Assembly (NCBI GenBank): GCA_035257465.1
Contig: DATEXA010000239.1
Coordinates: 3,809 to 67,808, forward strand
Length of the DNA stretch: 64,000 nt
Direction: 5' to 3'
Source: Pyrinomonadaceae bacterium
GTDB lineage: Bacteria; Acidobacteriota; Blastocatellia; Pyrinomonadales; Pyrinomonadaceae
Below the pieces are notes generated by a model. The model did no database searches. It saw nothing but the letters and a program-made list of their open reading frames with translations, and was not told the origin of the DNA. Position numbers and translations under genes: made by a program. This document shows, one piece after another, positions 8,799 to 27,299 of the stretch; within the stretch, counting starts at the first letter, position 1; each line of letters starts with the position of its first letter.

Positions 8799-8805
8799 TG
8801 GCGTC

Positions 8806-9462: not shown

Positions 9463-9473
9463 AGGTAAATCAA

Positions 9474-9647
9474 ATGTCGAAACCCTGGGTGATTTGCCCT
9501 GAGTGTGGCAATGAAATGAATTATCACGCTACGAAGATCGATTACAGCGTAGATGACCCGGCGTCTGTCGACGTAGTTTTCGGGGGAACGGTCAAAGAGG
9601 TCCATACCTGTCCCAGGTGCGGGCGGATTGAATTGCGAACAGCTTGA
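9474..9647 (+). CDS. Small zinc-ribbon protein (57 aa), below the ORF-track size cutoff
   Basis: AGAGG Shine-Dalgarno 8 nt before the ATG. My translation is 'MSKPWVICPECGNEMNYHATKIDYSVDDPASVDVVFGGTVKEVHTCPRCGRIELRTA', with CPxC...CPxC pairs. It starts 11 nt after the MOSC gene. Confidence 0.6.
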   Translation: MSKPWVICPECGNEMNYHATKIDYSVDDPASVDVVFGGTVKEVHTCPRCGRIELRTA

Positions 9648-9937
9648 CGTTGAGCGCAACCGCAAGAACATCACAACGGAAAACACTTTCCAAATGCCAG
9701 TAACAATCGTGCTGGTCTTTTGACTCGAATCTTTCTCCGGAGCAGTGACCAAAAAAGATTGCGCTCCTTCGCCAGAATCCCCAACCAGGTACTGCTGTCA
9801 GCATCACAGCCAGTCCACCGCGAGTTGCAGCGCCCAACTGTCTAAACTCTGAATACCAACTTCACCAACAAGGCGAAGGATCACAATCGAACTGACTAAG
9901 ACCAAAAGAACGAGCATTACTTCACGCTCCTTCTAAT

Positions 9938-11071: not shown

Positions 11072-11149
11072 TTGTGGCTTCCTTTCCAGTCCGGTTTTAG
11101 TCAACAAGTTCTTTGGGGCTTTTCGGTGTCTCCGTGTCTTCTTAGAAAC

Positions 11150-11250
11150 TGTCTTGGCGTCTCTGCATTCTCGACGTCTCAGCGGTGAGATCGAATGTTG
11201 AACCGCCGAGCATTAGAGTACCAGAGGAGACGTAGAGAAATTTCATTGCT
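11150..11250. repeat. Palindromic intergenic repeat, copy A
   Basis: Shares the blocks cgtctcagcgg, ccgccgag, agagtac, cagaggag and tttcattg, in the same order, with the 12705-12818 copy. Its arms (cgtctc...cagcgg / ccgccgag...gagacg) can fold into a long imperfect hairpin. Confidence 0.6.
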
Positions 11251-11255
11251 ATGCA

Positions 11256-12677: not shown

Positions 12678-12704
12678 CCTCCAGGACTCGGTTCCTCTGT
12701 CTCC

Positions 12705-12818
12705 TGGAAATTCTCTGCGCCTCTGCGTGCTCTGCGTCTCAGCGTTTGAAATCTGCCTGAATCCATTACCGCCGAGACCAGAGTACGCAGAGGAGGCACA
12801 AAGGAGGTTTCATTGAGC
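12705..12818. repeat. Palindromic intergenic repeat, copy B
   Basis: cctctgcgtgctctg (12720-12734) pairs with cagagtacgcagagg (12779-12793) as 15 bp including one G-T. An inner stem gtctcagcg / cgccgagac is also present. Homologous to copy A. Confidence 0.6.
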
Positions 12819-12838
12819 AACGCAGAAACTCTCCTTTT

Positions 12839-15800
12839 TCAATCTCCCGATGCAGGTTGTATCGTCGGTCCCTCTGCTCTCGCCTCGTGTTTCTTTCCGA
12901 ATCTCATAGATAATTTCTCAACAGCATAAAAACTAACTGGAATCAGAAAACTCGCGATTAGCGTGTCAGCTAACATTCCAGAAACAACTACAGTTCCCAG
13001 TATCTGACGGGCGGCTGCCCCCGACCCTGTCGAGAACCACAACGGTAAACAGCCGGCGATGAACGCAAGAGAAGTCATTAACAACGGCCGACGTCGCAAG
13101 CGCGCACCTTCCAGCGCAGATTCGAGCAGACCACGCCCTCTCTCAAATTCCATCTTTGCGAACTCGACGATCAGAATTGCATTCTTGGCAGCGAGACCTA
13201 TCACTACAATCAAACCGATTTGCGCGTACACACCAAGGTCGTAGCCACGCAACAACAGACCGATGAACGCTCCACACAAAGCAATGGGAACTGTAAGTAG
13301 TACCGAGAAAGGTAACGACCAGCTCTCGTAAAGCGCAGCGAGGATCAGAAAAACGAAGACCAGTGACAACGCAAGTGCCTTCACTGCTGCTCCCGATGTC
13401 TGTTTTTCCTGGTAAGAAAGATCAGCCCAGTCGTATCCCATTTCGCGTGGTAGAAGTTCCTTGGCTACTTCATCCAACGCATCCATCGCCTGACCAGAAC
13501 TGTAACCAGGCGCGGCGGCGCCAATTATTTGAGCACTACGATAAAGATTGAACCGATTTGTATATTCCGGACCGGCAATACTCCGTGTGGAAACCAACGC
13601 CGATAGCGGCACCATGTCGCCATCCTTGTTCCGGACGTAATAGTTGTCGATGTCTTGTTCGGTCCGCCGCATTTCACCTTCCGATTGGAGGAAGACACGC
13701 CACTGCCTGCCGAAGCGATTGAACTGGTTGAGATACAGACCACCAAGATAGGCCTGCAACGTTTGATAAACGTCCGCGATAGCCACACCTTGCTTCAGAG
13801 CTTTATCTCGATCTACGTCAGCAAAGACTTGCGGAACGTCGGCGGAGAATTGAGTAATCACTCCGGCTAACTCCGGCCGTTTATGCGCGGCGGCAAGAAA
13901 TGCCTTCACGTTCTGATCGAGGAATTCTACTGAGCCACCACTTCGATCTTGTATCCACAGTGAGAAACCTCCGGCGCTACCGAGACCTGGAATCGATGGC
14001 GGCATGAACGCGAAAGCCATCCCTTCGGGAATTTGTGTCGCGAGTGCTCCATTGATCTTGGCAACAATCGCCTGTGCCTTAAGTTCCTTTGAAGTACGTT
14101 CGTCCCATGGTTTGAGACTCATAAAGAAGAAACCCTGGTAACTGGCCGAGATGCGATTCAGCAAACTAAACCCGCCGATCGCGGTGTAGTACTCCACTCC
14201 GTCTGTGCGGGCTAGAACGTTTTCTACTTTCTTCATGACTTGATCGGTTCGTTCAAGAGATGCGGCCGGGGGAAGCTGAACGTGCAACATTGCGTAGCCG
14301 TAGTCTTCTTCGGGAAGAAAACCTGTCGGCATAGTCCGCCCAATGAAGGCATCTGCCACTGTGAAACCACCGATGATCACAACGCCTATCACTGCTTTTC
14401 GCAGCAACGCATGACTCCAGTTCAGATAGCCATGCATTATCTTGTCGAACACGCGGTTGAAGCCTCCGAAGAATCGGCCGACCACACCTTTCGATTTTTT
14501 TCGCGGCTTTAGTAACAACGCAGCCAGCGCAGGTGAAAGAGTCAGCGCATTGAAGGCCGAGATCAGCATCGAGACTGCTATCGTCATAGCAAACTGATTA
14601 TTTAGACGACCCTGGATTCCTCCCATAAACGCAACCGGTAGGAAAACTGACGAAAGAATTAGCGCGATCGCGATCACAGGTCCGCCAACGTCTTTCATTG
14701 CCTGGATGGTCGCGTCGCGCGGAGACTTCCCTTCCTCGATGTGGTGCTCGACTGCTTCGACAACGATGATTGCGTCATCGACCACCAGTCCTATCGCGAG
14801 GACAAACGCGAACAAGGACAACGTGTTTATCGAGAATCCCAACAGCGGAAAGACGGCAAAGGTTCCGATAAGCGATACCGGAACGGCGATCACCGGTATG
14901 AGCGTTGCGCGCCAGTTTTGCAGAAACAGAAACACAACGACGATCACAAGAACCATCGCTTCCAGCAACGTGGTGACAGTTTCCTTCATGCCCTCGCTGA
15001 CCGGTCGCGTTGTGTCAAAGACGACTGCGTAATCGAGGTCAGCAGGAAAACGCTGCTTTAGTTGCGCCATCGTAGTGCGCAGTCCGTTGGCGGTTGCGAG
15101 AGCATTCGATCCTGGCGCTTGAAATATCGCCACGATGGCACTGGGTTGACCGTTCATGCGCGAGCTCTGTTGATAATTGAGTGCGCCCAATTCAATGCGT
15201 GCAACATCTTTCAAGCGCACAACGGAGCCATCGTTGTTCTCCCGCACTACAACTTGTCCAAATTCTTCTGGAGTCTGCAGTCGCCCCTGGGCCCGGACTG
15301 TGTAGGTCTTTTCCATACCTGCGGGTGCAGGCGCGGCTCCCACGCGTCCCGATGGATTAACAGTGCTTTGTTCCTGAACCGCTTTCGTCAGGTCGGGTAC
15401 TCCCAGGCCTAGTTTTGCCAGAACATCCGGCTTGACCCAAATGCGCATTGCGTAGTCGCTTGAACCAAACACTCTTACTTCGCCAACTCCGGGCACACGG
15501 TAAAGAACGTCGTTGATATTGATGTTCGCGTAATTGGCAAGGAACAACGAATCATAAGTTTGGTTTGGAGAGTAGAGCGAAAATACCAGCATCGGCAGTC
15601 CAGTGGACTTCCGGGTTGTTAGACCAAACTGGTTCACGTCAGTAGGAAGATTAGGCTCAGCTTGTGACAGCCGATTCTGCACGTTCACCTGATCGATGTT
15701 GACGTCAGTGTCCACACCAAAAGTCACTATCAGCTGCTGGCTACCATCGTTAGCGTTGATCGATTGCATGTAGAGCATGTTGTCAACGCCGTTCATTTGC

Positions 15801-16003
15801 TGCTCAATTGGCGTGGAAACGGACTGCTCGATCGTGATTGCGTCAGCGCCGGTGTAGTTGGTTGAGACAATGATCTGTGGGGGTAAGATCTCAGGAAACA
15901 GTGCCAGCGGTAGACCTGACATGCTGATCAGCCCGCCGATGACAGTGACCAGGGCGATAACCATCGCCACAATTGGTCGCCTTATAAAAAAGTTCGAAAT
16001 CAT
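12839..16003 (-). CDS. Multidrug-type RND efflux permease (HAE1, AcrB/MexB-like)
   Basis: 1054 aa beginning 'MISNFFIRRPIVAMVIAL', with the TM4 motif 'GLVVDDAIIVVEAVE' of the HAE1 type and 12-TM architecture. Confidence 0.95.
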   Translation of the reverse strand: MISNFFIRRPIVAMVIALVTVIGGLISMSGLPLALFPEILPPQIIVSTNYTGADAITIEQSVSTPIEQQMNGVDNMLYMQSINANDGSQQLIVTFGVDTDVNIDQVNVQNRLSQAEPNLPTDVNQFGLTTRKSTGLPMLVFSLYSPNQTYDSLFLANYANININDVLYRVPGVGEVRVFGSSDYAMRIWVKPDVLAKLGLGVPDLTKAVQEQSTVNPSGRVGAAPAPAGMEKTYTVRAQGRLQTPEEFGQVVVRENNDGSVVRLKDVARIELGALNYQQSSRMNGQPSAIVAIFQAPGSNALATANGLRTTMAQLKQRFPADLDYAVVFDTTRPVSEGMKETVTTLLEAMVLVIVVVFLFLQNWRATLIPVIAVPVSLIGTFAVFPLLGFSINTLSLFAFVLAIGLVVDDAIIVVEAVEHHIEEGKSPRDATIQAMKDVGGPVIAIALILSSVFLPVAFMGGIQGRLNNQFAMTIAVSMLISAFNALTLSPALAALLLKPRKKSKGVVGRFFGGFNRVFDKIMHGYLNWSHALLRKAVIGVVIIGGFTVADAFIGRTMPTGFLPEEDYGYAMLHVQLPPAASLERTDQVMKKVENVLARTDGVEYYTAIGGFSLLNRISASYQGFFFMSLKPWDERTSKELKAQAIVAKINGALATQIPEGMAFAFMPPSIPGLGSAGGFSLWIQDRSGGSVEFLDQNVKAFLAAAHKRPELAGVITQFSADVPQVFADVDRDKALKQGVAIADVYQTLQAYLGGLYLNQFNRFGRQWRVFLQSEGEMRRTEQDIDNYYVRNKDGDMVPLSALVSTRSIAGPEYTNRFNLYRSAQIIGAAAPGYSSGQAMDALDEVAKELLPREMGYDWADLSYQEKQTSGAAVKALALSLVFVFLILAALYESWSLPFSVLLTVPIALCGAFIGLLLRGYDLGVYAQIGLIVVIGLAAKNAILIVEFAKMEFERGRGLLESALEGARLRRRPLLMTSLAFIAGCLPLWFSTGSGAAARQILGTVVVSGMLADTLIASFLIPVSFYAVEKLSMRFGKKHEARAEGPTIQPASGD

Positions 16004-16029
16004 TTCCCCACTCCGAAAGTTACCTGAAG

Positions 16030-17430
16030 TTACTTGGCTGGTTCAGGGTTACCCTTAAACGGTTTTGGATCTACGACCATGCCGGGACTTACCTTGAGGG
16101 CGCCTTCAGCGACGATGACCTCGCCTGACTTCAGACCTTCCTGAACGATCCACATCGATCCACTGCGTTCGCTAACCTTGACCGGACGAATGCTCACCTT
16201 GTTGTCACTACCAACCACTGCTACTTGATAAGTTCCCTGTAACTCGGTAACTGCACGCTGAGGAACCAGCAACGCATCCTCTCGTGTCTTCGTAACTGCA
16301 CGGACGCGCCCATACTGTCCGGGTCGTAAGACACTGCCCGCGTTCGGAAACACTCCTGCCATTCGGATTGCACCAGTCTTTGGATCGACTTGACGGTCTG
16401 CAAAATAAAATCGACCTCGTTCCGGATATGTGCTGCCGTCGGACAGAACCAGTTCCAGTTCAAGATCCGAAAGATTGTCACTTTGTTCAGCTTCAGAATG
16501 TTTAGTCTTTGAGTATTTCAAATACTCTTGTTCACTCAAGGTGAAATAAACCTTGATCGGATCTACTGTCGAAACAGTTGTAAGCGATCCACTGGTAGTG
16601 TTGACGAGATTGCCGACCTGGGCCTGGGCAATGCCGACGATGCCATCGATAGGAGCCAGGATTTTCGTAAACCCCAGATTGAGTACTGCGGCATTCGCTG
16701 CTGCTTTGGCATTCTCCAATTGTCCTTTAGCAGTTGAGATTCCAGCCTTGGCGTTGTTGATCTGCGCTTTTGCTTGGGCCAGTTGAGCTCTTGCCGCTTC
16801 TATTCCTGCCCGTGCGACATCAACCTGCGCCTTCGAAACGGCATTCCCCTGCTTAGCATTGTCGTATTCCTGTTGCGTCACTGCTTTCTGATCAAGAAGT
16901 GGACGATATTTATCAACATCGAGTTGTGACTTGACTTGATTTGCCTCAGCTTGTGTCAGTTGTGCCTGGGATTGCGTGAGCTGACTGTTGGCCTGCGCTT
17001 CTTGCGCTTCAGCCTGAGTGACCTGCGACATAGCCTGCTCAAGCTGTCCCTGAAATTGTGCGACTTGACCGTTTGCCTGATCTAGAGCTGCTTGAAAAGG
17101 TCGTGGATCAATCTCAAACAGAAGCTGTCCCTTCTTCACAAAGGAACCTTCTTTGTAATCCTGTCTCAACAGATAACCAGTTACTTGCGCCTTTATCTCG
17201 GCGTTCACCATTCCATCCGTGGTGCCAATCCACTCGCTGTAGATCGGCACATTTGTCGGCTGAACTGAAATCACCGCAACTTCGAGCGGTCTTGGTGCCG
17301 CTTGCGCTGGTTTGTTGGACCGAGCCAATACCAACAAACCTGCAAGCACTGAGAAGACTCCAATCGCAACGATTGAAAAAAGTACCTTGTGTTTTCCTAT
17401 AACGTATTGCAGTGCTTTTAAGTGGACCAT
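16030..17430 (-). CDS. RND efflux periplasmic adaptor (membrane fusion protein)
   Basis: N-terminal TM segment, a long Ala/Gln-rich coiled-coil hairpin and a beta-barrel C-terminus. It lies 26 nt upstream of the RND permease. Confidence 0.9.
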   Translation of the reverse strand: MVHLKALQYVIGKHKVLFSIVAIGVFSVLAGLLVLARSNKPAQAAPRPLEVAVISVQPTNVPIYSEWIGTTDGMVNAEIKAQVTGYLLRQDYKEGSFVKKGQLLFEIDPRPFQAALDQANGQVAQFQGQLEQAMSQVTQAEAQEAQANSQLTQSQAQLTQAEANQVKSQLDVDKYRPLLDQKAVTQQEYDNAKQGNAVSKAQVDVARAGIEAARAQLAQAKAQINNAKAGISTAKGQLENAKAAANAAVLNLGFTKILAPIDGIVGIAQAQVGNLVNTTSGSLTTVSTVDPIKVYFTLSEQEYLKYSKTKHSEAEQSDNLSDLELELVLSDGSTYPERGRFYFADRQVDPKTGAIRMAGVFPNAGSVLRPGQYGRVRAVTKTREDALLVPQRAVTELQGTYQVAVVGSDNKVSIRPVKVSERSGSMWIVQEGLKSGEVIVAEGALKVSPGMVVDPKPFKGNPEPAK

Positions 17431-17923
17431 CCTCTATCCCCCTGATATGACACAGCGCGTGATGTGCTTTTCCAACGGCCTCCGCCCCCGAGCAGGTGAA
17501 CTTGCGCCCCGAGTTACCCCCTAACTCCAAGTCCACCTGCTTCGACGATCACGGGCCTCCGCCCACAAGGCCCGTGCCCGCTTGAAAAGCAGAGTTGCTA
17601 AGTTCTTCCATACCGATCCGCTCTGTTTCTAAATCCGTCGTGGTTCTAAATCCTCAGCAACATGTCTTCAGCAACATCCCTGCCAGTGTTTCTGCTGGGA
17701 CAAATCGAGGGTTCACACCGTTGTAATCGATTCCGAGTGACAACAGCTTGGCAGGTGACCATATTTCGTCGGTGAGATTTTCGGCATTAGCGGTAATGAC
17801 AGCGTTGACCAACGCATCTATTTACAAAACTCGAGGTCATTGCCCGCTTTATGAGAAGTTGGTTTTGCGGCCGACGTATTGCAGTAGTCATGACGCTTAA
17901 CAGAACTCGAAAGGAAGGACCAC

Positions 17924-18673
17924 ATGGACAAATTGGACGGAAAGGTTGCCGTCGTGACAGGAGGCAACAGTGGAATTGGGCTGGCTACGGCTAAAGAATT
18001 CAGTGAGCAGGGAGCGAAGGTCGTAATCTCGGGAAGGGATCAGCAGACACTCAATTCGGCGAAGAGGGAAATCGGCAACGGCGTGTTGGCGGTCAAATCT
18101 GACACCTCAAATCTCGAGGACATCGACGCGCTGTTCGGAGCTGTGAAGAAGGAGTTCGGGAAGATTGACGTGTTGTTCGTTAACGCGGGTGTCGGGAAGT
18201 TTTTACCGATTGAGAGCGTGGACGAAGAGTTCTTCGATCAGATCATGGACATCAATTTCAAGGGCGCGTACTTCACAATTCAGAAAGCATTACCGCTGCT
18301 AAACGACAACGCATCGATCATTCTTAACACTTCGATCAACGCCCATATTGGAATGCCGAACACGAGCGTATACGCGGCGAGCAAGGCGGCGTTGATAACC
18401 CTCGCGAGAACTCTATCTGCTGAGCTCATCGGACGCGGGATAAGGGTCAATGCAGTGAGTCCAGGTCCCGTTACCACACCTATCTTCGACAAGTTAGGGT
18501 TGGCTCCTCAGGATCTTCAGAAGTTGGCACAGAGTGTTCAAGTTAAGGTGCCGATGAAACGTTTTGGATTACCCGAGGAGATAGCGAAGACCGTTTTGTT
18601 CCTGGCTAGTTCAGATTCCTCGTTCTTGCTGGGGACGGAAATTGTCGCTGATGGAGGAATGAGCCAGCTGTAA
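17924..18673 (+). CDS. SDR-family oxidoreductase
   Basis: AAGGAAGGA Shine-Dalgarno, 'VTGGNSGIGLATA' (TGxxxGxG), 'NAG' and the catalytic 'YAASKAAL'. Confidence 0.9.
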   Translation: MDKLDGKVAVVTGGNSGIGLATAKEFSEQGAKVVISGRDQQTLNSAKREIGNGVLAVKSDTSNLEDIDALFGAVKKEFGKIDVLFVNAGVGKFLPIESVDEEFFDQIMDINFKGAYFTIQKALPLLNDNASIILNTSINAHIGMPNTSVYAASKAALITLARTLSAELIGRGIRVNAVSPGPVTTPIFDKLGLAPQDLQKLAQSVQVKVPMKRFGLPEEIAKTVLFLASSDSSFLLGTEIVADGGMSQL

Positions 18674-18956: not shown

Positions 18957-19226
18957 TTATTTGTGAGCCTCGATCTCTTCGATGAAGCATTTAGCCATCA
19001 GACCCTTTGAAACGAGTCGCGTCCCTTTCTCAAACATTTTCGTCAACAACTGCTTTCCCTTATTGTCGATGAAGCTAACAGCCGTTAAATCAACTGAGAC
19101 TGCCGCCTTGCTGGCTGAGGCCGCACTCCAACAGCGTTCCAGTTCTCCTACTGCTTCGCCGGCGAGTTTACCTTCAAGAAAGAGTCGAGTAATCGCGCGC
19201 TCATCATGTGTGGTAATTCTGATCAT
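18957..19226 (-). CDS. Single-domain STAS protein (paralog of 23060-23329)
   Basis: 'MIRITTH...LFLEGKLAGEAVGEL...VSVDLTAVSFIDNKGKQLL'. The track ORF extends to 19271, and I prefer the internal Met at 19226. It is divergent from the sigma-54 activator. Confidence 0.75.
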   Translation of the reverse strand: MIRITTHDERAITRLFLEGKLAGEAVGELERCWSAASASKAAVSVDLTAVSFIDNKGKQLLTKMFEKGTRLVSKGLMAKCFIEEIEAHK

Positions 19227-19520
19227 AGGTTTCGTCCGAACAATGACTAGCAACTTGTTAGCCGCAATCAATCCGAGGGCAAAATGTCGCTAAATATTCT
19301 GATTGCAAAGAAGAACTCCGGCGTTGAAAAGAGTGACAATCAAACATCTGACCGTATTTCACCAGATGACGGATACCCGTCATTGGGGAAGGAACCAGAG
19401 ACGCGTTTTGCTCGTAACGACGTAGTCAAGTATTCTTTGATCAAACGAGGTCACCAGGGTTTTCGTGTTGAGTCTTTTGAAAGGACTGGCCCCATGCCTG
19501 AGGTTTCGGGGGAGAAAGTA

Positions 19521-21578
19521 ATGAATGCCCACACTGCTTTCGCAGTTGACACAGAGTTACAGACGCAAAAGTTTCTAACGCTGCTTGAACTTTCCAAAGC
19601 GATCGCCTCTCATCGCGATTTATCAGGACTATTCCACGATTTAACTTGCCGTCTGCGAAATCTCTTTGCCTTTCGCGATCTGGCGGTCATGCTGCACGAC
19701 GATAAGAAAAATGTGATGCGGTCCTACATCATGGAAGGATGTGACGGGGCATGGCTCCCTCAAGATCCGAATGAAGTTCCAATAGAGGGTTCCATCAGCG
19801 GTCAGGTTTGGCAGACCCAGCAGCCGCTTGTAATCGATGATTTGGACAAAGACTATCGATTCCCTTCAGCCAGCATCCTGCGCGACCGCGGCGTGAAATC
19901 GGTCTGTTGCCTGTCGCTAAGCACTGTGCATCAAAGACTTGGCACGTTGAATTTATTGAGTGAGGAAGTCGGTGCATATGACCATTTTGATCTCGGGTTT
20001 GCGCAATTAGTCGCCGGACAGATTGCTGTAGCGGTTGAAGCACAGTTTCATCAGCAGCAGTTGGCGCGGGAACGAGATCGCTCAAAGCTATTGTTGGAAG
20101 TTAACAACACTCTGGTTTCAAATCTAAATCTGCGAGAGTTGTTGTCGGGCATCTCGCACAGTCTCGCCCCCGTAATGCCACACGAAGCAGCTGCCTTGAC
20201 ACTGTACGACAAATCGCTCAATCAACTTCGCGTCGCCGCCTTTGATTTTCCCGAGCACGACGGTAACTGCGTTACCGGCAAGATCATTCCCTTTGAAAAC
20301 AATCCTATCGGTGAAGCGTTTACAACCAGAAAAACTGTTTTGATCGATTATGGCAATCCACAGGATCCGCAAATAGCTTGCGGAGGAAAGATGGCCTCCG
20401 GTTGTGCTGCTCCATTGATCTTTCGCGATCGAGTGCTCGGAGTAATCGCTATTAAGAGTAGTCGACCGCACGCGTTCTCCGAAGACGACGCCGAATTGTT
20501 CGGTCAGGTTGCTAATCAAGTGGCAATTGCAGTCGAGAATGCCCTCGCCTACAACGAGATCGAGACACTCAAGAACAAGCTGGAGAAAGAGAAGCTCTAC
20601 CTCGAAGAAGAGATTCGTACTGAGTACAACTTTGAAGAGATCGTAGGCAGCAGCCGCGTACTCCGGCAGGCCTTGCAACAAGTTGAGACAGTTGCTTCGA
20701 CTGACTCAACGGTCCTGATCTCTGGCGAAACGGGAACCGGCAAAGAGTTAATCGCGCGTGCGATCCATAATCTGAGCGAACGTCGCGAGCGTACGCTGGT
20801 TAAAGTTAACTGCGCCGCAATTCCAACCGGACTCCTGGAAAGCGAGTTGTTTGGTCATGAGAAGGGTGCATTTACAGGAGCGATCGATCGACGCATAGGT
20901 CGATTCGAGCTTGCACACCAGGGAACAATCTTCCTGGACGAGGTCGAGGACATTCCTCTCGAATTGCAATCCAAGCTGTTGCGCGTGCTTCAGGAGCATG
21001 AGTTTGAACGTCTTGGCAGTTCGCGCACGTTGCGTGTTGACGTTCGTGTTGTAGCGGCCACAAATGCCGACTTAGCTCAACTAGTCGAAGAGAAAAAGTT
21101 CCGCAGCGATCTCTATTACCGTCTAAACGTTTTTCCAGTCAATGTGCCGTCATTACGTGAGCGACCTGAGGACATTCCACTTCTGGTCCACTTCTTCGCC
21201 AACAAGTTTGCGCAGCAGATGAAGCGACACATCGAGAGCGTTCCGAAAGATGTGATGGAGGCTCTGGTGAAATACCACTGGCCCGGCAACATTCGCGAAC
21301 TGGAAAACCTTGTGGAGCGAGCCGTGATCCTTTCGCGTGGTTCAATCCTCGAAGTACCGTTGAGTGAATTGAAGCAATCGAAGGCGTCGAACCACGCTAA
21401 TGGCTCGATAAGCCTGGAAGCTGTTGAGCGCGATCACATTTTGCGAATACTTGGTGAGTCCGGCTGGGTAATTGGAGGTCCAAATGGAGCAGCCGCTCGT
21501 CTTGGTCTAAACAGAACAACACTTAACCACCGGATGCGTAAATTGGGAATTTTCAGGCCACAACCCGCGTCAGTGTAG
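19521..21578 (+). CDS. Sigma-54-dependent transcriptional activator (GAF-GAF-AAA+-Fis HTH; FhlA/NifA-like architecture)
   Basis: Walker A 'GETGTGKE', the sigma-54 contact loop '[10 protein letters not shown]', '[11 protein letters not shown]' and a C-terminal HTH '[21 protein letters not shown]'. The start is placed at the ATG preceded by GGGGGAG, although the ORF is open from 19284. Confidence 0.9.
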
Positions 21579-22162
21579 AGTCATTTGCTAAAATACCTCG
21601 GTCTACCCACACCCGTCGGATCTCTCAGTCGAAATTAACCTACCAGAGACCTGCGACCTCAAGGAGCGCTCTTTGCTCATCGCTCTAAATTGTTTCGCGA
21701 CGGAAATGCGGTAATTTCGCGCTACCTCTCGCGTTAGTCAGTAAGGGCTCAGAGCCGCGTAAATTGATCAAATAAAGCCTCACATTTGAGACGAACGTAA
21801 CTGCGCCGAGTAACTGATAACTCCGTACGGTGCTGGATTACGGGAACTTCGTGAACGCGGAAATGGTGAAAGCCTTCAACGCTTCCATCGAATATCGCCA
21901 GCGATTCGGTCCATGATGCACGTCTAAAATTCCCAAAAACAATCCGAGGCAAAATAAGCTTCGTAGGGAATAAAACCTAACCGGGTTCGGTATTAACAGT
22001 AGATCGCGTAATAACAAACAAGAGGGTTCCTGCAAACGCGGTAAAAGCTCACAAGTTCGAGAATGCAGCGTTACGGCACCGCAACGTCAACCAATCCCCC
22101 GACGTGGCGTCCTTCTGATTATGAGTAGCTCTTACAAATCACGGATACGCGGAGGTTCTAAG

Positions 22163-22453
22163 TTGAGTTGTCAACGAGCACGGGAACTCATGACCAGCCT
22201 TGTTGATGGCGCGCTCGATGGATTTCACGTTTCAGAAATCGAGCAACACCTGGATCGATGCCAGGACTGTAAGCTTGAGTACATCAGTCGATTAACCATG
22301 CGTTCATCATTTAAAGACAAATCGCTTTATCATTGCGCGCCCCCTAGTCTGCGGAAGCGCATTCGTTCGTCCTTGCAAAAAGAGGCGCGAGTCGACGTGA
22401 CTTCTCGCATGACTTTGCGCTCCTTATCCAACAGGCACAATGAAGGATCATAG
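22163..22453 (+). CDS. Soluble zinc-binding anti-sigma factor (zf-HC2, RsrA-like ZAS)
   Basis: GGAGG Shine-Dalgarno 7 nt before a TTG. The ZAS spacing C-x25-H-x3-C-x2-C is seen in 'SCQRARELMTSLVDGALDGFHVSEIEQHLDRCQDC'. The protein is about 97 aa with no hydrophobic segment. The ORF is open from 22121. Confidence 0.75.
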   Translation: MSCQRARELMTSLVDGALDGFHVSEIEQHLDRCQDCKLEYISRLTMRSSFKDKSLYHCAPPSLRKRIRSSLQKEARVDVTSRMTLRSLSNRHNEGS

Positions 22454-22996
22454 CGCTCCCACACACAACTCTTCCGAAGTTTCTTTATCCCGATAATTCA
22501 CAAGAATCTGTTTTAGTCGTTCACGAGCACGAGCCAACCGTGACATCACAGTACCCATAGGAATCTTCACCACGTCCGCGATCTGTTTATAAGATAATTC
22601 TTCAAATTCTCTCAGTACGATCACCTCGCGAAACTCGGCGGGCAACTTTTCTAACGCACTCCTGAGCATTTGTTTGTCCGCTTCTTTGATTAGCAGCATC
22701 TCGGGATCCAAATCATCTGATGTCTGCATACATGTCTCATCATCGAAATCGCCTTCCGATTCCATTAATCGATTTTGCCGAATCCAGTTGTGATAGGTGT
22801 TGCGGACAATCGCCAGCAACCATGGCCGAGCGTCGCCTCCTTGAAAGGCAGCGAAGTGCCGCAAAGCGCGTAGGTAAGCTTCCTGTACGACATCTTCAGC
22901 ATCTTTATCGTTTCGAGTGAGCCACCGAGCCAGATTGTATGCCGCATCGAGATGCGGCAAAGCGGCTTCCTCAAAACCCTGGATAATGGTGGTCAT
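22448..22996 (-). CDS. ECF-type sigma-70 family RNA polymerase sigma factor
   Basis: Region 2 'AEDVVQEAYLRALRHFAAFQG...WLLAIVRNTYHNWIR' and region 4 'LPAEFREVIVLREFEELSYKQIADVVKIPMGTVMSRLARARERL'. The start could be as far upstream as 23035. Confidence 0.9.
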   Translation of the reverse strand: MTTIIQGFEEAALPHLDAAYNLARWLTRNDKDAEDVVQEAYLRALRHFAAFQGGDARPWLLAIVRNTYHNWIRQNRLMESEGDFDDETCMQTSDDLDPEMLLIKEADKQMLRSALEKLPAEFREVIVLREFEELSYKQIADVVKIPMGTVMSRLARARERLKQILVNYRDKETSEELCVGAL

Positions 22997-23059
22997 TACC
23001 GTGCTCCATTGTCGGGCTCTAAGCCCGGCATACATCGGTCAAGGTTCGATTTAGTAGTG

Positions 23060-23329
23060 CTATGCATCCTTGCACCTGCTGATCTGCTCCACTACAAACA
23101 GCGGAACATTCACATGACGAACTCCACGGTCTATCAGACTCTTTATTAGTGCGATCCCTTCGCAGTCGATGAAACCAATGTTTTTCAAATCAACATCGAG
23201 ACTCAAGCCTTCTTCCAGTGCTGACTCAGCGGTCTCTCGCAGTAACTCAACCCATTGGCCCGTAACCCGTCCATCCAGTTGTAAAGTAACTTGATGTCCT
23301 ACCAAAACGACTTTCGTGATCTTCAACAT
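23060..23329 (-). CDS. Single-domain STAS protein immediately upstream of the ECF sigma gene
   Basis: 'TLQLDGRVTGQWVELL...LDVDLKNIGFIDCEGIALIKSL'. The STAS core has Cys in place of the phosphorylatable Ser. Confidence 0.8.
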   Translation of the reverse strand: MLKITKVVLVGHQVTLQLDGRVTGQWVELLRETAESALEEGLSLDVDLKNIGFIDCEGIALIKSLIDRGVRHVNVPLFVVEQISRCKDA

Positions 23330-23418
23330 TCCGGTGTCTCTCTTGGAAATTTTGTCCCATGTCGCCCACTACCAAACCGTACCGATCGCTGGGCAAAATA
23401 TCGTTTCTAATTAGGGTG

Positions 23419-23497
23419 GAGGAGCAAGACCTGTGCGTGTGCGTCGCTCGTGGGAGCAAGCGATACACTCGTGTTCTTTAGTTCGGTCTTGCTCCTC
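23419..23497. other. Long-range perfect 13-bp inverted repeat
   Basis: gaggagcaagacc (23419-23431) and ggtcttgctcctc (23485-23497), lying between the secreted-protein gene and the STAS gene. Confidence 0.4.
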
Positions 23498-23588
23498 GCG
23501 TTCGCCAGGCGAGTTGCAGCGTTGAAACTCCTGGTCGCTTTCATCTCACCTTTCGACCGCAGGACCTCCCTTTCAAACCCCTGGTTTG

Positions 23589-24446
23589 TTAGTTTTGCGG
23601 AATCCCCTGGGGCTCACCATAGATAAAGTCATCCATCATGACGATGTCGTTCTTCTCATCATCATTGGGCCCGGGAACATCACCTGCAGTGATACGCACA
23701 CTAGCGATCCTTGCGTCACCGTAGGTGATACCGAAGAAAGAAAATCCCGCATCGCCTGGCGACGGTGGCACGAAACTGCTGTACAGCAGCTGACCGTCTG
23801 CGCCGAAAAACTCAACCAATGTACTGGAGCCGCGGTTACCATTTTTTTGCCCTGGCCCACTGCCATCCGGTTGATCGACGTCACAGAAAATCGCTCCGAA
23901 GCCTTTGACTGTTGCTGCGGTATTTCCCATTGAACCAGGCACGAAAAACAAAACATTAGTGATATTGCTACCTACCGGGGTGAAAAGGCGCTTGGCACTG
24001 AAGGCCTTGAAAATGGTGCCGTAGGTTTCGTTGTTGAAGAGCCCAACCAGTCCGTTTTGCGCGCCACCCGAAGGAGGTGCCTGGGCAAGTCCGAGTCCTG
24101 GTGTGGTGGTCTGGTTACCTCGGCTGTCTAAGAAGTTGTTGAATGGTGTTACGGGCGGTGTGGTCGCGTCAGGTCCACCAACTCCATCCCAATTGATTTC
24201 TCGACGACCATCTGAAAGTGGCCCTTTGTTGTTGCCGTTGTTTTGATCTCCCAGTTCATGGCGGAACCTGTCAACTGAACCTTGAATCGAAGCGGCGTCT
24301 GGCCCTGCAGCCTGAAACACAGTAGGTGGAACAAAATCTCTGCCAGTGTTGTCTTGCGCATGAACCGACTGATTTAGTCTGCCGGGCACGACAATCGACA
24401 TTAGGCCGATGACGGCAGCAAATATTAAGAACACATACTTCTTCAT
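23589..24446 (-). CDS. Secreted hypothetical protein
   Basis: AAAGGA Shine-Dalgarno and the signal peptide 'MKKYVFLIFAAVIGLMSIVVPG...VHAQ'. The mature part is Gly/Asn/Pro-rich and contains 'GRREINWDG'. No family was recognised. Confidence 0.75.
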   Translation of the reverse strand: MKKYVFLIFAAVIGLMSIVVPGRLNQSVHAQDNTGRDFVPPTVFQAAGPDAASIQGSVDRFRHELGDQNNGNNKGPLSDGRREINWDGVGGPDATTPPVTPFNNFLDSRGNQTTTPGLGLAQAPPSGGAQNGLVGLFNNETYGTIFKAFSAKRLFTPVGSNITNVLFFVPGSMGNTAATVKGFGAIFCDVDQPDGSGPGQKNGNRGSSTLVEFFGADGQLLYSSFVPPSPGDAGFSFFGITYGDARIASVRITAGDVPGPNDDEKNDIVMMDDFIYGEPQGIPQN

Positions 24447-24637
24447 ACTTGAATATCCTTTCAATCTAACTGGTAATGAAACATCCCCGCATGAGCGCGT
24501 TACATCGGAAGCGGCACGTTTCGAATGAAGCGGTCTTACGCCGCTTGTAATTGGCCCTCGTGGTCCAGCGACAAGACATTTGAGATCTCTGGCATTCAGT
24601 TGTGGTCGCCATTAAATGTGTCGCGAGACCATCGCAG

Positions 24638-24653
24638 TGCAGATTGCGTGCCG
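24638..24653 (-). promoter_or_regulatory. Candidate sigma-54 (-24/-12) promoter
   Basis: The minus strand reads CGGCACGCAATCTGCA against the consensus TGGCACG-N4-TTGCA. GG and GC have the correct 10-nt spacing. It lies about 190 nt upstream of the ATG at 24446 and just downstream of the activator gene. Confidence 0.5.
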
Positions 24654-24800
24654 TGGACATACACAAGAATTCGATTTCGGCTCTCCGCTAAATTGTTTGA
24701 GAATCTGGTAACTCGAGGTGTAAAACGAGGTCAGAAGGACTGATAGGAGAACCAATCCCGTGGAATCGCGGATATTAGGAGATAGCCTTTGGTAGGCGAA

Positions 24801-27299
24801 CTACGATATGTGGTGGGCGGAGCGACTAATACCCAGCTTAGCCATTCTGTGTCGCAGCGTATTCGGATGGATACCAAGAGTCTTGGCAGCGCCGTTTGCG
24901 CCTTCAACCACCCCGCGAGTTTGCTGCAGCGCTGCACAAATATGATCTCGCTCGACCTCTTCCAAAGTCTTAAGCGCAACAGATAGTCCAGGAGTCAGGG
25001 CAGGTTCAGACTCCGACGTCTTGTCGAAATGGGCCTCCGAAACCGGCACGCTGGTGAGATCGGTCTCTAACTCGAGAATTGAACCCTGAGAAAGTATCAA
25101 TGCTCGCTCTATAACATTTTGCAACTCCCGGACGTTTCCGGGCCAGGAGTAGCTTGTGAGTCTTTCACTGGCCACGGCGGATATGCCCTCCATCTTCCTC
25201 CCCAGGTTTCGCGCGGATTTAGAAAGGAAGAACATCGCTAACTGAGGAATATCTGAACGTCGCTCGCGCAGGGGAGGAACTTCAAGTGGAAAGACATTCA
25301 ATCGATAATAGAGATCCGAGCGGAACGTGCCTTCGCTAATAGATTCCTTAAGGTTTCGATTTGTGGCGCAGATGATTCGCACGTCTACGCGCACCGAACG
25401 ACTACTGCCCACTGGCTCGAACTCCCGCTCCTGAAGAACGCGCAACAATTTGACCTGAGTGTCCAGGGGCAACTCACCTACCTCATCTAGGAAGATTGTG
25501 CCGCCGTCCGCAAGTTCGAACCGGCCAATCCGTCGTTCGAACGCCCCGGTAAAAGCACCTTTCACATGGCCGAATAATTCGCTCTCAACCAAACCGGCGG
25601 AAATGGCGCTACAGTTCACCTTTACTAACGGCCGATCCTTCCGGGCGCTGCGATCGTGAATAGCCCTTGCAATTAACTCTTTTCCTGTTCCCGTCTCTCC
25701 GTAGATGAGCACGCTGGAGTTTGTTGGCGCGACTTGATCGACTCGTTTTAGGAGCGCAAGAAGGGCGTCACTGTTACCAACAATTTCTTCGAAGTTATGT
25801 ACAGTGCGGATCTCCTCTTGAAGATAAACATTTTCCTTCTCAAGTCTTCCCTTCAGCGCCGCGATCTGCTCATAAGATTTCATGTTTGCGATCGCTAGCG
25901 AGACCTGGTTAGCGACTTCCCTCAACAACTCAGCATCAGATTCCGTGTACCTGTTCTTTGCTTCACTCCAAACGGTGAAAGTACCTATGCTGGTTCCCAT
26001 CGCCACGAGTGGTACAACGCAATATGATTGAATTCCCTCTTCTACGAGCCGCCTTTCGCCAGGCGACTCCTGTTCTCGTTGCAGATCACCTCGCGTGACC
26101 GTCTTTTGATGTTCCAGTACCCATGCCGAAATGCGGGTCTCCTCAAGATCGTATTCTTTCCCAAGCCGGAAAAACTCCGATTCGCCCGTACCATTCATCG
26201 ATAGAAGTTTCAGCGTCTTAGACTCGGGCTGGTAAAGAAGAAAGGCGGCTCGGTCAAAGGGAACCACTCGTTGAATAGCTTCATAGGCAGATGCGAAGAG
26301 CGCATCCTGCGCGAGGTTGTTAATAATCGCGTTGTTGATCTCGAGTAGGGTACGTTTCCGCTGCTCGCTTTTCCGAAGCGCCTCTTCCGCCTTTCGTCGC
26401 TCAGTTACGTCAACGAAAGTAACGACAGCGCCAACAGTTTTGCCCTCCCTGACAAGTGGGTGAGACCAATATTCGACGGGGAAACTACTCCCATCTTTTT
26501 TCCAAAAAATATCATCATCAATATGAACGCCACGGTTTTCCTGGAAGCCAACAAAAATAGGACACTCTTCGATAGGAAATGCGGTGCCATCTTTTCGTGT
26601 ATGGTGATCTAACGAATGCATGTTCTGCCCGAGCAACTCCTGGGCATCGTCATAACCAAGTAACTGAACTGCAGCCGGATTACAAAAGAGACAGGTGCCG
26701 TGGGAATCACATCCGAAGATTCCTTCAGCAGCGGAGTTAAGAATCAACCGAGCTCGCTCTTCGCTCAACTGCAGGGCTTCTTCTGCTCTTTTCCGTTCGG
26801 TGATGTCTTCTGTCAGTGCCAATAAGAATGGCTGCGTACTCTCGGTACTGTGCACCACAGATACGTTATTCCTTACCCAAACAAAACTGCCATCTTTGTG
26901 ACGACATTGTTTCTCAATTTGAAACTGATCTCGTTTTCCTTCCACCAGTTCAGTAACCAAAGCCCAATTGACTTCACGATAATCCTCATGAGTAATCTCG
27001 AGGAATGAAAGCTCTCGAAATTCACTCTCACTGTAACCGAGCATTTTTTGGTAGGTGGAATTTGTCGAGAGAACGCGGCCACTAAGATCGGCAAGCGCTA
27101 CGCCTATAGCAGAATTCTCAAAGACTGATCGCCACCGCAAGGCTTCAGTCTTTTCGCGCTGTGTGACACCTTCGGTAGGAGATTGTGCTTCCGGTTTTAA
27201 GCTGATTGGTCCAACGTCCCGCATACAACTCGTGGAATACACTCTGAATGTGGACGGAGTTTGTTTCACGTAGAGCAGGAAGTCAAGAGACCAAGCCAT
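24801..27299 (-). CDS. Sigma-54-dependent transcriptional activator (PAS-PAS-GAF-AAA+-Fis HTH)
   Basis: Two PAS/PAC units ('LTEDITERKRAEEAL', 'FVDVTERRKAEEAL') and a GAF domain. Other motifs are Walker A 'GETGTGKE', 'GHVKGAFTGA', '[11 protein letters not shown]' and the HTH 'AAKTLGIHPNTLRHRMAKLGI'. Confidence 0.92.
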   Translation of the reverse strand: MAWSLDFLLYVKQTPSTFRVYSTSCMRDVGPISLKPEAQSPTEGVTQREKTEALRWRSVFENSAIGVALADLSGRVLSTNSTYQKMLGYSESEFRELSFLEITHEDYREVNWALVTELVEGKRDQFQIEKQCRHKDGSFVWVRNNVSVVHSTESTQPFLLALTEDITERKRAEEALQLSEERARLILNSAAEGIFGCDSHGTCLFCNPAAVQLLGYDDAQELLGQNMHSLDHHTRKDGTAFPIEECPIFVGFQENRGVHIDDDIFWKKDGSSFPVEYWSHPLVREGKTVGAVVTFVDVTERRKAEEALRKSEQRKRTLLEINNAIINNLAQDALFASAYEAIQRVVPFDRAAFLLYQPESKTLKLLSMNGTGESEFFRLGKEYDLEETRISAWVLEHQKTVTRGDLQREQESPGERRLVEEGIQSYCVVPLVAMGTSIGTFTVWSEAKNRYTESDAELLREVANQVSLAIANMKSYEQIAALKGRLEKENVYLQEEIRTVHNFEEIVGNSDALLALLKRVDQVAPTNSSVLIYGETGTGKELIARAIHDRSARKDRPLVKVNCSAISAGLVESELFGHVKGAFTGAFERRIGRFELADGGTIFLDEVGELPLDTQVKLLRVLQEREFEPVGSSRSVRVDVRIICATNRNLKESISEGTFRSDLYYRLNVFPLEVPPLRERRSDIPQLAMFFLSKSARNLGRKMEGISAVASERLTSYSWPGNVRELQNVIERALILSQGSILELETDLTSVPVSEAHFDKTSESEPALTPGLSVALKTLEEVERDHICAALQQTRGVVEGANGAAKTLGIHPNTLRHRMAKLGISRSAHHIS

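Follow-up and report, generated by a model that had tools for sequence, protein, structure and literature searches.

Paralogous mini-STAS genes beside GAF-containing sigma-54 activators and behind predicted sigma-54 promoters in an acidobacterium

In the SypA/SypE-SypG system of Vibrio fischeri, SypE controls the STAS protein SypA through Ser phosphorylation, and SypA influences polysaccharide production rather than the activator. HycA is an antagonist of the sigma-54 activator FhlA. Other small proteins known to modulate such activators (EBPs) form the pairs PspA-PspF, HrpV(/HrpG)-HrpS, NifL-NifA and RtcAB-RtcR; PspA and RtcAB are encoded inside the operon that is regulated, and hycABCDEFGHI is under FhlA regulation (PMC4987338, PMC3105312, PMC9650030). 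MlaB, a compact STAS protein of the MlaFEDB lipid transporter, binds its ATPase stably rather than through demonstrated phosphorylation (PMC7367683). The literature searched yielded neither a STAS domain acting as a modulator of an EBP nor a description of STAS genes paired with such activators, a pairing that a first-pass annotation of the DNA studied here had already thought uncharacterised.

The window, the whole 64,000-nucleotide stretch analysed, comes from a soil acidobacterium. Two ORFs read at first pass as paralogous STAS proteins are both in the ORF listing (Table 1). They share 30% identity over 64 aa (E=2e-8), far above chance. The start of STAS1 is taken at the MIRIT ATG common to all orthologues; the ORF listing alone runs on to a TTG at 19271. 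AF2 models of STAS1 (pLDDT 92.9) and STAS2 (pLDDT 88.5) confirm, at the level of the predicted fold, that both belong to the STAS superfamily. The best Foldseek matches of both were STAS proteins only (E 8e-6 to 1e-4, TM 0.75-0.83), with the mycobacterial anti-sigma antagonist 4qtp and RsbV matched by STAS1 (TM 0.77-0.83) and SpoIIAA and RsbV by STAS2 (TM 0.76-0.83). Against Pfam STAS (PF01740) and STAS_2 (PF13466) both proteins score 17.3-21.5 bits, under the gathering cut-offs of 22.6 and 29.2. Weak precomputed PF13466 matches are present on some orthologues. The two proteins are members of a large, uncurated and unnamed family of compact single-domain STAS proteins (four strands, three helices), with 1283 representatives at E<=1e-10 and the signature MLRIT..LEGKLxGPWVxELExCW..VDLxxVxFIDxxG. 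A third STAS reported at first pass, STAS3, is a clear one at 53 bits.

Table 1. Features of the window discussed in the text, in order of position.
Feature	Position	Strand	Description
STAS3	6907-7281	(-)	clear STAS; TIDAGG, Ala at acceptor position
Cassette 1 cargo	11256..17430	(-)	MFP 16030-17430, RND pump 12839-16003, outer-membrane factor 11256-12677
P_MFP	17670..17685	(-)	TGGCAGGGATGTTGCT; best predicted sigma-54 -24/-12 site of the window, 5' of RND efflux operon
Candidate enhancer of P_MFP	17737..17759	(-)	GTCACCTGCCAAGCTGTTGTCAC; two GTCAC half-sites
SDR oxidoreductase gene	17924..18673	(+)	between STAS1 and efflux operon; insertion in this lineage only
STAS1	18957..19226	(-)	89 aa, compact single-domain STAS, MIRIT...FIDNKG...CFIEEI
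P_STAS1	19249..19264	(-)	predicted sigma-54 type -24/-12 element CGGCTAACAAGTTGCT, 22 nt 5' of STAS1 ATG
Candidate enhancer (UAS) of P_STAS1	19333..19368	(-)	GTCAG-N10-GTCAC overlapping imperfect palindrome CATCTGGTGAAATACGGTCAGATG
EBP1	19521..21578	(+)	FhlA-like, GAF-GAF-AAA+-HTH_8 (Pfam); divergent from STAS1; long ORF version from 19284
zf-HC2 anti-sigma factor	22121..22453	(+)	110 aa, Pfam zf-HC2 E=8e-8; convergent with ECF sigma, 6-nt 3' overlap
ECF sigma factor	22448..23035	(-)	Pfam Sigma70_r2/r4_2; 24 nt 3' of STAS2
STAS2	23060..23329	(-)	89 aa, compact STAS, MLKIT...FIDCEG
Gene X	23589..24464	(-)	291 aa, N-terminal signal-like hydrophobic stretch; first gene behind P_X
P_X	24638..24653	(-)	predicted sigma-54 -24/-12 element CGGCACGCAATCTGCA
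EBP2	24801..27299	(-)	PAS-PAS-GAF-AAA+-HTH_8 (Pfam)

Pfam architectures bear out the first reading of both neighbours as GAF-containing sigma-54 activators. The Sigma54_activat AAA+ domain scores 244 bits in each, GAFTGA is visible in both, and the AAA lid and HTH_8 were found. FhlA is the closest NCBIfam model for both activators, below the equivalog cut-off (for EBP1, NF011958 at 563 bits against 830); EBP1 orthologues are 685-708 aa long. EBP1 and EBP2, which are 47% identical across the GAF-AAA+-HTH module, are the only sigma-54 activators in the window. A duplication of the EBP-STAS pair fits these data, since both the EBPs and the STAS proteins are paralogous and no other EBP is present.

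Confinement of the adjacency to this one genome had been named beforehand as a result that would count against the first-pass annotation; the adjacency instead holds across classes, phyla and gene-order rearrangements. A GAF-type sigma-54 EBP adjoins the STAS gene in all of the roughly 34 STAS1/STAS2-type loci with enough flank, a count that, like the others here, overstates independent events because the loci are phylogenetically non-independent. They come from Blastocatellia, Terriglobia, Vicinamibacteria-like bacteria and Nitrospirota, and the EBP and STAS genes are divergent in some and co-directional in others. In the DNA scanned, the 501 kb no more than 3 kb from a mini-STAS contain 53 sigma-54 AAA+ domains, versus none in the 223 kb beyond 5 kb. 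In the broad family, about 30-45% of loci have an EBP nearby: among 33 informative loci it is adjacent in 10 and within 5 kb in 4 more, and none is in reach in the other 19. The EBP is the commonest upstream neighbour family there.

Predicted sigma-54 control of the STAS genes, an arrow running from activator to STAS gene, is a new point beyond the first reading. An element equivalent to P_STAS1 (yGGCnAnnnnnTTGCw) lies 13-42 nt before the start codon in 19 of 19 STAS1-type loci, although the flanks have diverged, against a chance expectation of about 0.014 per 45-nt window. Against an expectation of about 2.6, 28 of 75 broad-family loci have a sigma-54 site upstream, with distances clustering at 26-30 nt; only 6 of the 19 loci without an EBP in reach have a strong one. 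P_X, already proposed at first pass, ranks second among the sigma-54 sites of the window; orthologous loci keep it, as CGGCACG-N4-cTGCA in L001/L002 and L004/L006. Most type-1 loci carry a site of the P_MFP kind (TGGCAaaGC..TTGCT) in the STAS-MFP interval. Judged by these conserved GG-N10-GC -24/-12 elements, both STAS genes are predicted members of sigma-54 regulons, STAS1 through its own element and STAS2 via P_X. Because they are located behind conserved sigma-54 promoters, they are probably targets of the neighbouring activators.

Candidate enhancers lie upstream of P_MFP and P_STAS1. That of P_MFP is conserved at -64 to -77 in 11 of 14 loci; GTCAC/GTGAC pentamers upstream of P_MFP number 26 versus 3.1 in shuffles. 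Upstream of P_STAS the pentamers number 13 versus 2.7 (shuffle maximum 10), which hints at the candidate P_STAS1 enhancer; a paired enhancer-like motif is present there in only 3 of 14 loci. GTCAC half-site elements are present in the upstream regions of both P_MFP and P_STAS.

What recurs from locus to locus is a STAS gene, an EBP and a sigma-54 promoter, while the cargo varies (pump, ECF sigma, thioredoxin, NmrA/AKR/SDR). The RND efflux operon, overlooked at first pass, is by gene order the conserved context of STAS1: orthologous MFP-RND-OEP genes lie downstream of STAS1-type genes in L012-L016, L020-L029 and L035-L036. In the source genome STAS1 is separated from the operon because of the inserted SDR gene, which the window shares with L008-L011, L018 and L019 but not with L012-L016 and L020-L029, where MFP directly follows STAS. 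Window positions 8-19 kb form a redox/detox island. STAS2 sits in a predicted sigma-54-driven unit of gene X, STAS2 and the ECF sigma gene, with neither a terminator nor a sigma-70-like promoter found between P_X and the last of these. The gene X product has no Pfam or NCBIfam family; its slot is filled by an unannotated gene of 203-310 aa in L001-L007 and is missing from L039/L040.

The model we prefer, to which we would give slightly less than an even chance, is that of an activator-induced, phosphorylation-independent mini-STAS that feeds back on its own EBP. Each mini-STAS would be a small "leader" product of the sigma-54 regulon under the neighbouring FhlA-like GAF/PAS-GAF EBP. The EBP would sense a signal through its GAF/PAS domains and activate the -24/-12 promoter or promoters, yielding mini-STAS together with cargo (the RND efflux pump for STAS1, gene X and the ECF sigma for STAS2). 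Using its conserved beta2-alpha1 / beta3-alpha2 face, the mini-STAS would then bind back to the EBP that induced it and tune the activity of that EBP, which would close a loop of autoregulation like those of PspA-PspF, HrpV-HrpS, HycA-FhlA or RtcAB-RtcR. Here we infer that the promoters depend on the EBP and that STAS and EBP are in physical contact, with either a braking or a boosting effect. Such a loop would reconcile the arrow from activator to STAS gene with that from STAS to activator. Adjacency and sigma-54 promoters are also fully accounted for if the STAS is a mere regulon member, with feedback unnecessary; together they suggest, without proving it, that EBPs have a feedback partner of a new kind.

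A second possibility is that the mini-STAS targets its co-expressed products and not the activator. STAS2 would associate with either the soluble zf-HC2 anti-sigma or the ECF sigma, and its sigma-54-driven co-production would thereby release or buffer ECF activity; STAS1 would serve the efflux/detox module. STAS2 is coupled more tightly to the ECF sigma (a 24-nt gap in the source genome) than to the EBP, and therefore the ECF-sigma branch of the first reading, which had named both as possible targets, stays in play. The coupling is kept in L001-L007, L039 and L040, with the genes overlapping or abutting in L001 (7297/7297), L040 (8189 vs 8192) and L039 (4626/4629), spacing typical of stoichiometric partners. 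The zf-HC2 protein, which by eye has no obvious transmembrane segment, is convergent with the ECF gene also in L002 and L004-L007, an arrangement of Pyrinomonadaceae. Structural neighbours are all anti-sigma antagonists, and in the broad family efflux genes neighbour STAS at least as often as EBPs do. However, cassette 1 has no sigma/anti-sigma pair, zf-HC2 is missing from L039/L040, and a cargo as heterogeneous as pump, ECF sigma, thioredoxin and reductases is hard to square with a single conserved binding face. In L031/L032, moreover, the pump lies on the opposite side of the EBP and the STAS keeps to the EBP. We consider action on the cargo unlikely, though it is the main rival of the feedback model.

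Alternatively, the mini-STAS could be a co-sensor rather than a feedback brake: it would perceive a small ligand, for instance, or use the conserved Cys of the ELExCW motif to detect oxidants or electrophiles, and would relay the signal to the EBP or another target; its own sigma-54 control would then only amplify the response. This Cys32 occurs in 99 of 150 representatives, beside a Trp that is 91% conserved, and the cargo is mostly efflux, thioredoxin, NmrA, aldo-keto reductase and SDR genes, in keeping with the redox/detox island. However, Cys32 is missing from STAS2 and its more than 700 orthologue clusters, and GAF/PAS domains already equip the EBPs as sensors, which makes a sensory role rather improbable.

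Canonical partner-switching would make these proteins ordinary anti-sigma antagonists, with an RsbW/SpoIIAB-type kinase and a PP2C phosphatase encoded elsewhere in the genome. The top structural matches are indeed SpoIIAA and RsbV in kinase complexes. The first pass had called the window copies non-phosphorylatable, and Asn in STAS1 (FIDNKG) and Cys in STAS2 (FIDCEG) were verified at the phospho-acceptor position. The term suits both copies and the family as a class, in which Ser and Thr together make up 26 of 150 residues (~17%) in a mixed column (A42, D24, S18, E13, P12, T8, C7), but not 6 of 16 STAS1 orthologues, which have Ser or Thr. The flanking residues are firmly conserved: 142/150 have the Asp just before and 148/150 the Gly two positions further on; the acceptor Cys is invariant across STAS2 orthologues. 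An RsbW/SpoIIAB-type HATPase is, as first noted, absent from the scanned window ORFs (all but a 512-aa ORF at 49883-51421 and a few short ones), and neither HATPase_c/GHKL kinases nor SpoIIE/PP2C are among the recurrent families in about 110 mini-STAS neighbour proteins. The sole PP2C-type sequence near the STAS genes in the scanned window, at 334-1020 and some 18 kb away, is the decayed gene it was taken for: its motifs VGGDFFDF and DVSGKGAAAA do not share a frame, and its reading frame is cut short. TIGR00377 (SpoIIAA/RsbV antagonists) scores 16-22 bits against a cut-off of 53.45. Because the acceptor column is unconstrained and kinase and phosphatase families do not recur nearby, phosphorylation-independent action, already favoured at first pass, is the best reading, and we give partner-switching very little credence.

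Passive synteny without functional meaning, or an MlaB-type transporter subunit, is highly improbable too: many members are auto-annotated as "MlaB component" by JGI, the proteins are compact like MlaB and many loci are drawn from closely related MAGs, but no MlaFED or other ABC genes were found among the neighbours, NF033618 (the MlaB equivalog) scores 16.5 bits against a cut-off of 90, the adjacency outlasts rearrangement and occurs in more than one phylum, and the sigma-54 elements are conserved though the flanks have diverged.

An extension of the feedback model to the family is possible but less likely than not. In it, mini-STAS proteins as a whole would be dedicated phosphorylation-independent modulators of AAA+ EBPs, each EBP inducing its own STAS, which would bind the GAF or AAA+ module of that EBP. 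If so, AAA+ EBPs would join the GHKL kinase anti-sigmas and the MlaF ABC ATPase as a third class of STAS partner; the mini-STAS would determine the gain of efflux, redox and ECF-sigma responses and how long they last, and the module would occur widely in Acidobacteriota and also in Nitrospirota.

Compared with SpoIIAA, RsbV and RsfB, the mini-STAS proteins have the same single-domain fold (TM 0.75-0.83) and keep the DLxxVxFxDxxG loop-helix region, i.e. the partner-binding face. Unlike them, they are shorter, lack the C-terminal strand and helix, do not conserve the acceptor Ser/Thr, have no GHKL kinase or PP2C neighbours and are encoded behind predicted sigma-54 promoters beside AAA+ activators. 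With MlaB they share compactness and a weak profile similarity (E about 0.1), but MlaB retains Thr52, and the mini-STAS genes have no Mla/ABC genes nearby and do not match NF033618. SypA, too, is a single-domain STAS whose locus is under a sigma-54 activator, whereas the mini-STAS family is without phospho-site and kinase/phosphatase. With the proteins that modulate EBPs (PspA, HrpV/HrpG, HycA, NifL and RtcAB) the mini-STAS shares neither sequence nor fold. It does share with them a gene position beside or inside an EBP-controlled unit, predicted for the mini-STAS, and a proposed role as EBP modulator. The divergent pspF and pspA genes resemble EBP1 and STAS1, and HrpRS, acting at the sigma-54 promoter of the ECF sigma gene hrpL under HrpV control, parallels the predicted course from EBP2 through P_X to STAS2 and the ECF sigma.

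Both mini-STAS genes that the first-pass annotation had placed in the window, STAS1 and STAS2, are present as claimed, and their products are paralogous (30% identity over 64 aa, E=2e-8). Pfam STAS and STAS_2 score the two proteins at 17-21 bits, under the gathering thresholds, and the NCBIfam 'anti-sigma factor antagonist' model reaches 16-20 bits versus a 53-bit cut-off. Because a profile of the mini-STAS family gave at best E about 0.1 against PDB sequences (MlaB, RsbV), a fold comparison was needed. AlphaFold2 with family alignments returned models with pLDDT of 88.5 (STAS2) and 92.9 (STAS1) and a b-b-a-b-a-b-a topology, and their best PDB matches in Foldseek were RsbV, SpoIIAA, RsfB, and a mycobacterial antagonist at TM 0.75-0.83. 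Judged from these models, STAS1 and STAS2 are genuine, shortened STAS domains. Like MlaB, they end before the final strand and helix that SpoIIAA has (PMC7367683). HMMER, run exhaustively over 1.84 billion cluster representatives, recovered 1283 family representatives at E<=1e-10, nearly all of 88-130 aa and sharing a sharp signature, MLRIT..LEGKLxGPWVxELExCW..VDLxxVxF(I/V)DxxGKxLL..EEI. Clustered at 50% identity, the family comprises >1000 clusters, most of them of soil-metagenome origin. STAS1 alone retrieved 29 clusters and a joint STAS1+STAS2 profile 1058; orthologue clusters of STAS2 number >700, of which the 120 listed show 69-96% identity. The signature escapes every Pfam and NCBIfam model, and the family has no name in either database. 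JGI automatic annotation alternates between 'MlaB component' and 'anti-anti-sigma factor', a routine mis-annotation. The mini-STAS proteins are a new, large STAS subfamily with new regulatory wiring.

Of 150 representatives, 142 retain the Asp just before the acceptor position (the site of the phosphorylated Ser in SpoIIAA and RsbV), and 148 retain the Gly two positions beyond that site. The acceptor column reads A42, D24, S18, E13, P12, T8, C7, N5 and others. It is invariantly Cys in STAS2 orthologues, and N, S, S, S, G, S, T, D, T, E, D, D, D, E, D, D in those of STAS1. The earlier description as non-phosphorylatable is exact for both window copies but does not extend to every STAS1 orthologue, some of which carry Ser or Thr. 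STAS3 is, as first described, a canonical STAS protein with Ala at this site (TIDAGG). Its neighbours are a PEMT/ICMT-type methyltransferase on one side and a DUF4760 protein on the other. At two homologous loci, L015 and L016, a canonical STAS gene also lies a few kb from the activator/mini-STAS cassette, beside DUF4760 in L015.

The pairing of a STAS gene with a GAF-type sigma-54 activator (enhancer-binding protein, EBP) extends beyond this genome, in Acidobacteriota and two Nitrospirota and in both divergent and co-directional orders. The window contains only two EBPs, each adjoining a STAS gene. EBP1, beside STAS1, and EBP2, beside STAS2, are paralogous (47% identity over GAF-AAA+-HTH), which would fit duplication of an EBP-STAS pair. 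Since the STAS-EBP pairs are all syntenic orthologues, a tree correlation would follow from shared phylogeny alone. In the broad family, 33 of 80 metagenomic loci had >=1.5 kb of upstream flank, and an EBP was adjacent in 10, within 5 kb in 4 more, and found in none of the other 19; these loci are phylogenetically non-independent and their gene calls are greedy ORFs. Five further short contigs terminate within an EBP gene. The association in the broad family is partial, at about 30-45%. GAF plus Sigma54_activat was the top Pfam family in upstream flanking ORFs (8-10 members, 56 scanned), and the 57 downstream ORFs scanned yielded HlyD/MFP 8, thioredoxin 7, OEP 5, NmrA 3, AKR 2, and SDR 2. Sigma-54 AAA+ domains numbered 53 at <3 kb from a mini-STAS gene (501 kb scanned) versus 0 at >5 kb (223 kb scanned). 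Five entries of 219-544 aa (P0265, P0303, P0342, P0260, P0251) begin with a mini-STAS followed by an OEP/TolC-like domain. It is implausible that a cytoplasmic STAS would be joined to an outer-membrane protein, so we discounted these fusions as probably neighbouring genes merged in gene calling. Used as adjacency evidence only, such read-throughs show that STAS immediately precedes outer-membrane efflux genes in other lineages.

In the type 1 cassette (L012-L016, L020-L029), a GAF-GAF sigma-54 EBP is divergent from the mini-STAS gene, which is followed by the efflux-pump genes MFP, RND, and OMF. The window and its closest relatives have an SDR gene inserted between STAS1 and the pump genes. 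The EBP is co-directional with and upstream of STAS in L034 (Terriglobia), L035 and L036 (the two Nitrospirota), and L037 (an acidobacterium); downstream of STAS, a full MFP-RND-OMF set occurs in L035/L036 and partial efflux-type matches in L034 and L037. At L031/L032 the pump has moved to the opposite side, downstream of the EBP, and STAS is still divergent from the EBP. The genes that come after STAS there encode unrelated secreted proteins: one ORF is GH16-like, judging by its motifs, and the other is large and beta-propeller-like. The other two RND systems in the window have neither EBP nor STAS. Cassette 1 is flanked by a redox/detox island, whose theme matches the thioredoxin, NmrA, AKR, and SDR genes downstream of mini-STAS elsewhere.

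Sigma-54 promoters were called by consensus, using a scan weighted on GG-N10-GC. The two top-ranked sites in the 64-kb window are P_MFP and P_X, upstream of the MFP gene and of gene X, which precedes STAS2. P_X, already proposed from the sequence, proved real and conserved, reading CGGCACG-N4-cTGCA in L001 and L004. All 19 STAS1-type loci, window included, carry yGGCnAnnnnnTTGCw 13-42 nt before the STAS start codon, where a background of 0.32 sites per kb per strand predicts about 0.014 per search interval. This element is kept while its flanks have diverged, and most STAS1-type loci have another, stronger one between STAS and MFP. In the broad family a site lies within 90 nt in 28/75 loci versus about 2.6 expected, and these sites share the motif TGGAACGgcccTTGCc and cluster at a distance of 26-30 nt from the start codon; 6/19 broad-family loci without a nearby EBP also have one. 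Given these conserved elements, the mini-STAS genes very probably belong to the sigma-54 regulon and are presumably controlled by the adjoining EBP. Directly upstream of STAS2 no sigma-54 site was found, and a promoter of its own was therefore dropped for co-transcription from P_X. Between P_X and the STAS2 and ECF sigma genes we found no terminator and no sigma-70-like site. Two high-GC Acidobacteriota loci, L039 (about 4340-4360, labelled Vicinamibacteria) and L040 (about 7900-7920), have in common TGGTACCACGGTTGAAC about 21 nt before the STAS start, with a sigma-54-like -24 and spacing but a -12 of TTGA, not TTGC. In 11/14 loci a two-half-site element, GTCACCTGaccaGTTGTtGTCAC, precedes P_MFP by 64-77 nt. 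Upstream of P_STAS, GTCAC/GTGAC pentamers number 13 versus 2.7 in shuffles, and the paired form is rare (3/14 loci). As a candidate enhancer, paired GTCAC is convincing for P_MFP and is not strong evidence for P_STAS. The candidate before P_STAS in the window favours the 19521 start for EBP1.

Positions of the features discussed, in window coordinates
Feature	Position	Strand	Remark
PP2C pseudogene	334-1020		
STAS3 neighbourhood	6393-7851		
STAS3	6907-7281		
Redox/detox island	8166-18673		flanks cassette 1
FMN reductase	8166-8798		redox/detox island
MOSC/YiiM	8779-9462		redox/detox island
Aldo-keto reductase	9938-11107		redox/detox island
OMF-RND-MFP pump	11256-17430		redox/detox island
P_MFP	17685-17670	-	
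Candidate GTCAC enhancer	17737-17759		P_MFP
SDR	17924-18673		redox/detox island
STAS1	18957-19226	-	
P_STAS1	19249-19264		CGGCTAACAAGTTGCT
Candidate GTCAC enhancer	19333-19368		P_STAS
zf-HC2 anti-sigma	22121-22453	+	110 aa, without obvious membrane segment
ECF sigma	22448-23035	-	presumed partner of zf-HC2 anti-sigma
STAS2	23060-23329	-	
Gene X	23589-24464	-	291 aa, signal-peptide-like N-terminus; first gene after sigma-54 promoter
P_X	24653-24638	-	
512-aa ORF	49883-51421		
Receiver-oxidoreductase fusion	51428-53155	-	

The mini-STAS proteins have a compact version of the STAS fold in which the canonical binding face is conserved; the phospho-acceptor has been lost, and the cargo varies. Their linkage to FhlA-like EBPs is recurrent and conserved across phyla, and conserved sigma-54 promoters precede the STAS genes. 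EBP, sigma-54 promoter, and mini-STAS appear to form an invariant trio while the cargo changes, and the most economical function therefore concerns the EBP itself. Once induced, the mini-STAS protein would bind its own activator stoichiometrically and so exert feedback on it. We hold this full model tentatively, with slightly less than even confidence.

It is conceivable, if unlikely, that mini-STAS proteins act on the cargo. The case is strongest for STAS2, which has a translational-coupling-like arrangement with the ECF sigma gene and a soluble zf-HC2 anti-sigma encoded convergently. The type 2 order is PAS-PAS-GAF EBP, P_X, gene X, mini-STAS, and ECF sigma. The zf-HC2 gene overlaps the 3' end of the ECF gene and is not co-transcribed downstream, a convergent layout kept in L002 and L004-L007 and missing from L039/L040. 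Those distant, Vicinamibacteria-like loci consist of EBP, STAS, and ECF, with the last two overlapping or abutting, and lack gene X and zf-HC2. Gene X has no match in Pfam or NCBIfam, and its counterparts span 203 to 310 aa. Cargo-directed action is, however, weak for STAS1 and for heterogeneous cargo.

We judge improbable a role as co-sensor through Cys32 (STAS1 numbering, ELExCW). Of the representatives, 99/150 have this residue, beside a Trp that is 91% conserved, a second Cys is found at position 76 (52/150) or 80 (26/150), and the cargo theme is redox/detox. STAS2, however, is without Cys32.

Canonical partner-switching with distant kinases is very improbable. In agreement with the first-pass annotation, no RsbW-type kinase was found among the window ORFs scanned, a set outside which the 512-aa ORF lies, and the PP2C gene is a pseudogene whose SpoIIE/PP2C motifs, VGGDFFDF and DVSGKGAAAA, are out of frame with each other and followed by truncation. 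The 512-aa ORF adjoins a response-regulator receiver fused to a pyridine-nucleotide-disulphide (thioredoxin-reductase-like) oxidoreductase and may encode its cognate kinase. In P0190 (L124, 494-934), a singleton on a 1164-nt contig, the mini-STAS reading frame continues without a break into the final ~55 residues of a HATPase_c domain of histidine-kinase type. We take it to be, in all probability, a chimera of the assembly or what a deletion has left behind, rather than a link to a kinase. An MlaB-like accessory role or passive synteny deserves equally little credence, and by the defining features tested the mini-STAS proteins are not members of the MlaB group.

In soil bacteria, much signal integration falls to sigma-54 activators. 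To our knowledge, only a handful of their trans-acting controllers are known (PspA, HrpV/HrpG, NifL, HycA, RtcAB), and we are aware of almost no experimental exploration of gene regulation in Acidobacteriota. In that phylum the mini-STAS family marks predicted sigma-54-controlled RND efflux/detoxification operons and a predicted sigma-54-to-ECF-sigma cascade. If feedback on the EBP is true, a STAS-fold partner of sigma-54 activators would be a new control principle and would extend the STAS repertoire past kinases and transporters. The cassette is small, consisting of an activator, a promoter, and an 89-aa protein. In the full-text literature searched we saw no paper that connects STAS domains with sigma-54 activators, and nothing relevant on STAS with ECF sigmas or efflux.

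Several known EBP modulators set a precedent for such logic. HycA antagonises FhlA. The hycA-I genes (hycABCDEFGHI) are under FhlA regulation. PspA controls PspF (PMC4987338), and RtcAB bind the RtcR sensor domain (PMC9650030). HrpV binds to HrpS at its AAA+ domain, and the ECF sigma HrpL is expressed from a sigma-54 promoter driven by HrpRS (PMC3105312), a close parallel to cassette 2. Regulation of nucleotide-binding partners by STAS domains is already known for GHKL kinases, and for the MlaF ABC ATPase (PMC7367683). The mini-STAS proteins belong with SpoIIAA and RsbV at the level of the fold, but by the defining features tested they are not members of that partner-switch family. By analogy, they may work like the EBP modulators PspA, HrpV, and HycA, to which they are unrelated as proteins.
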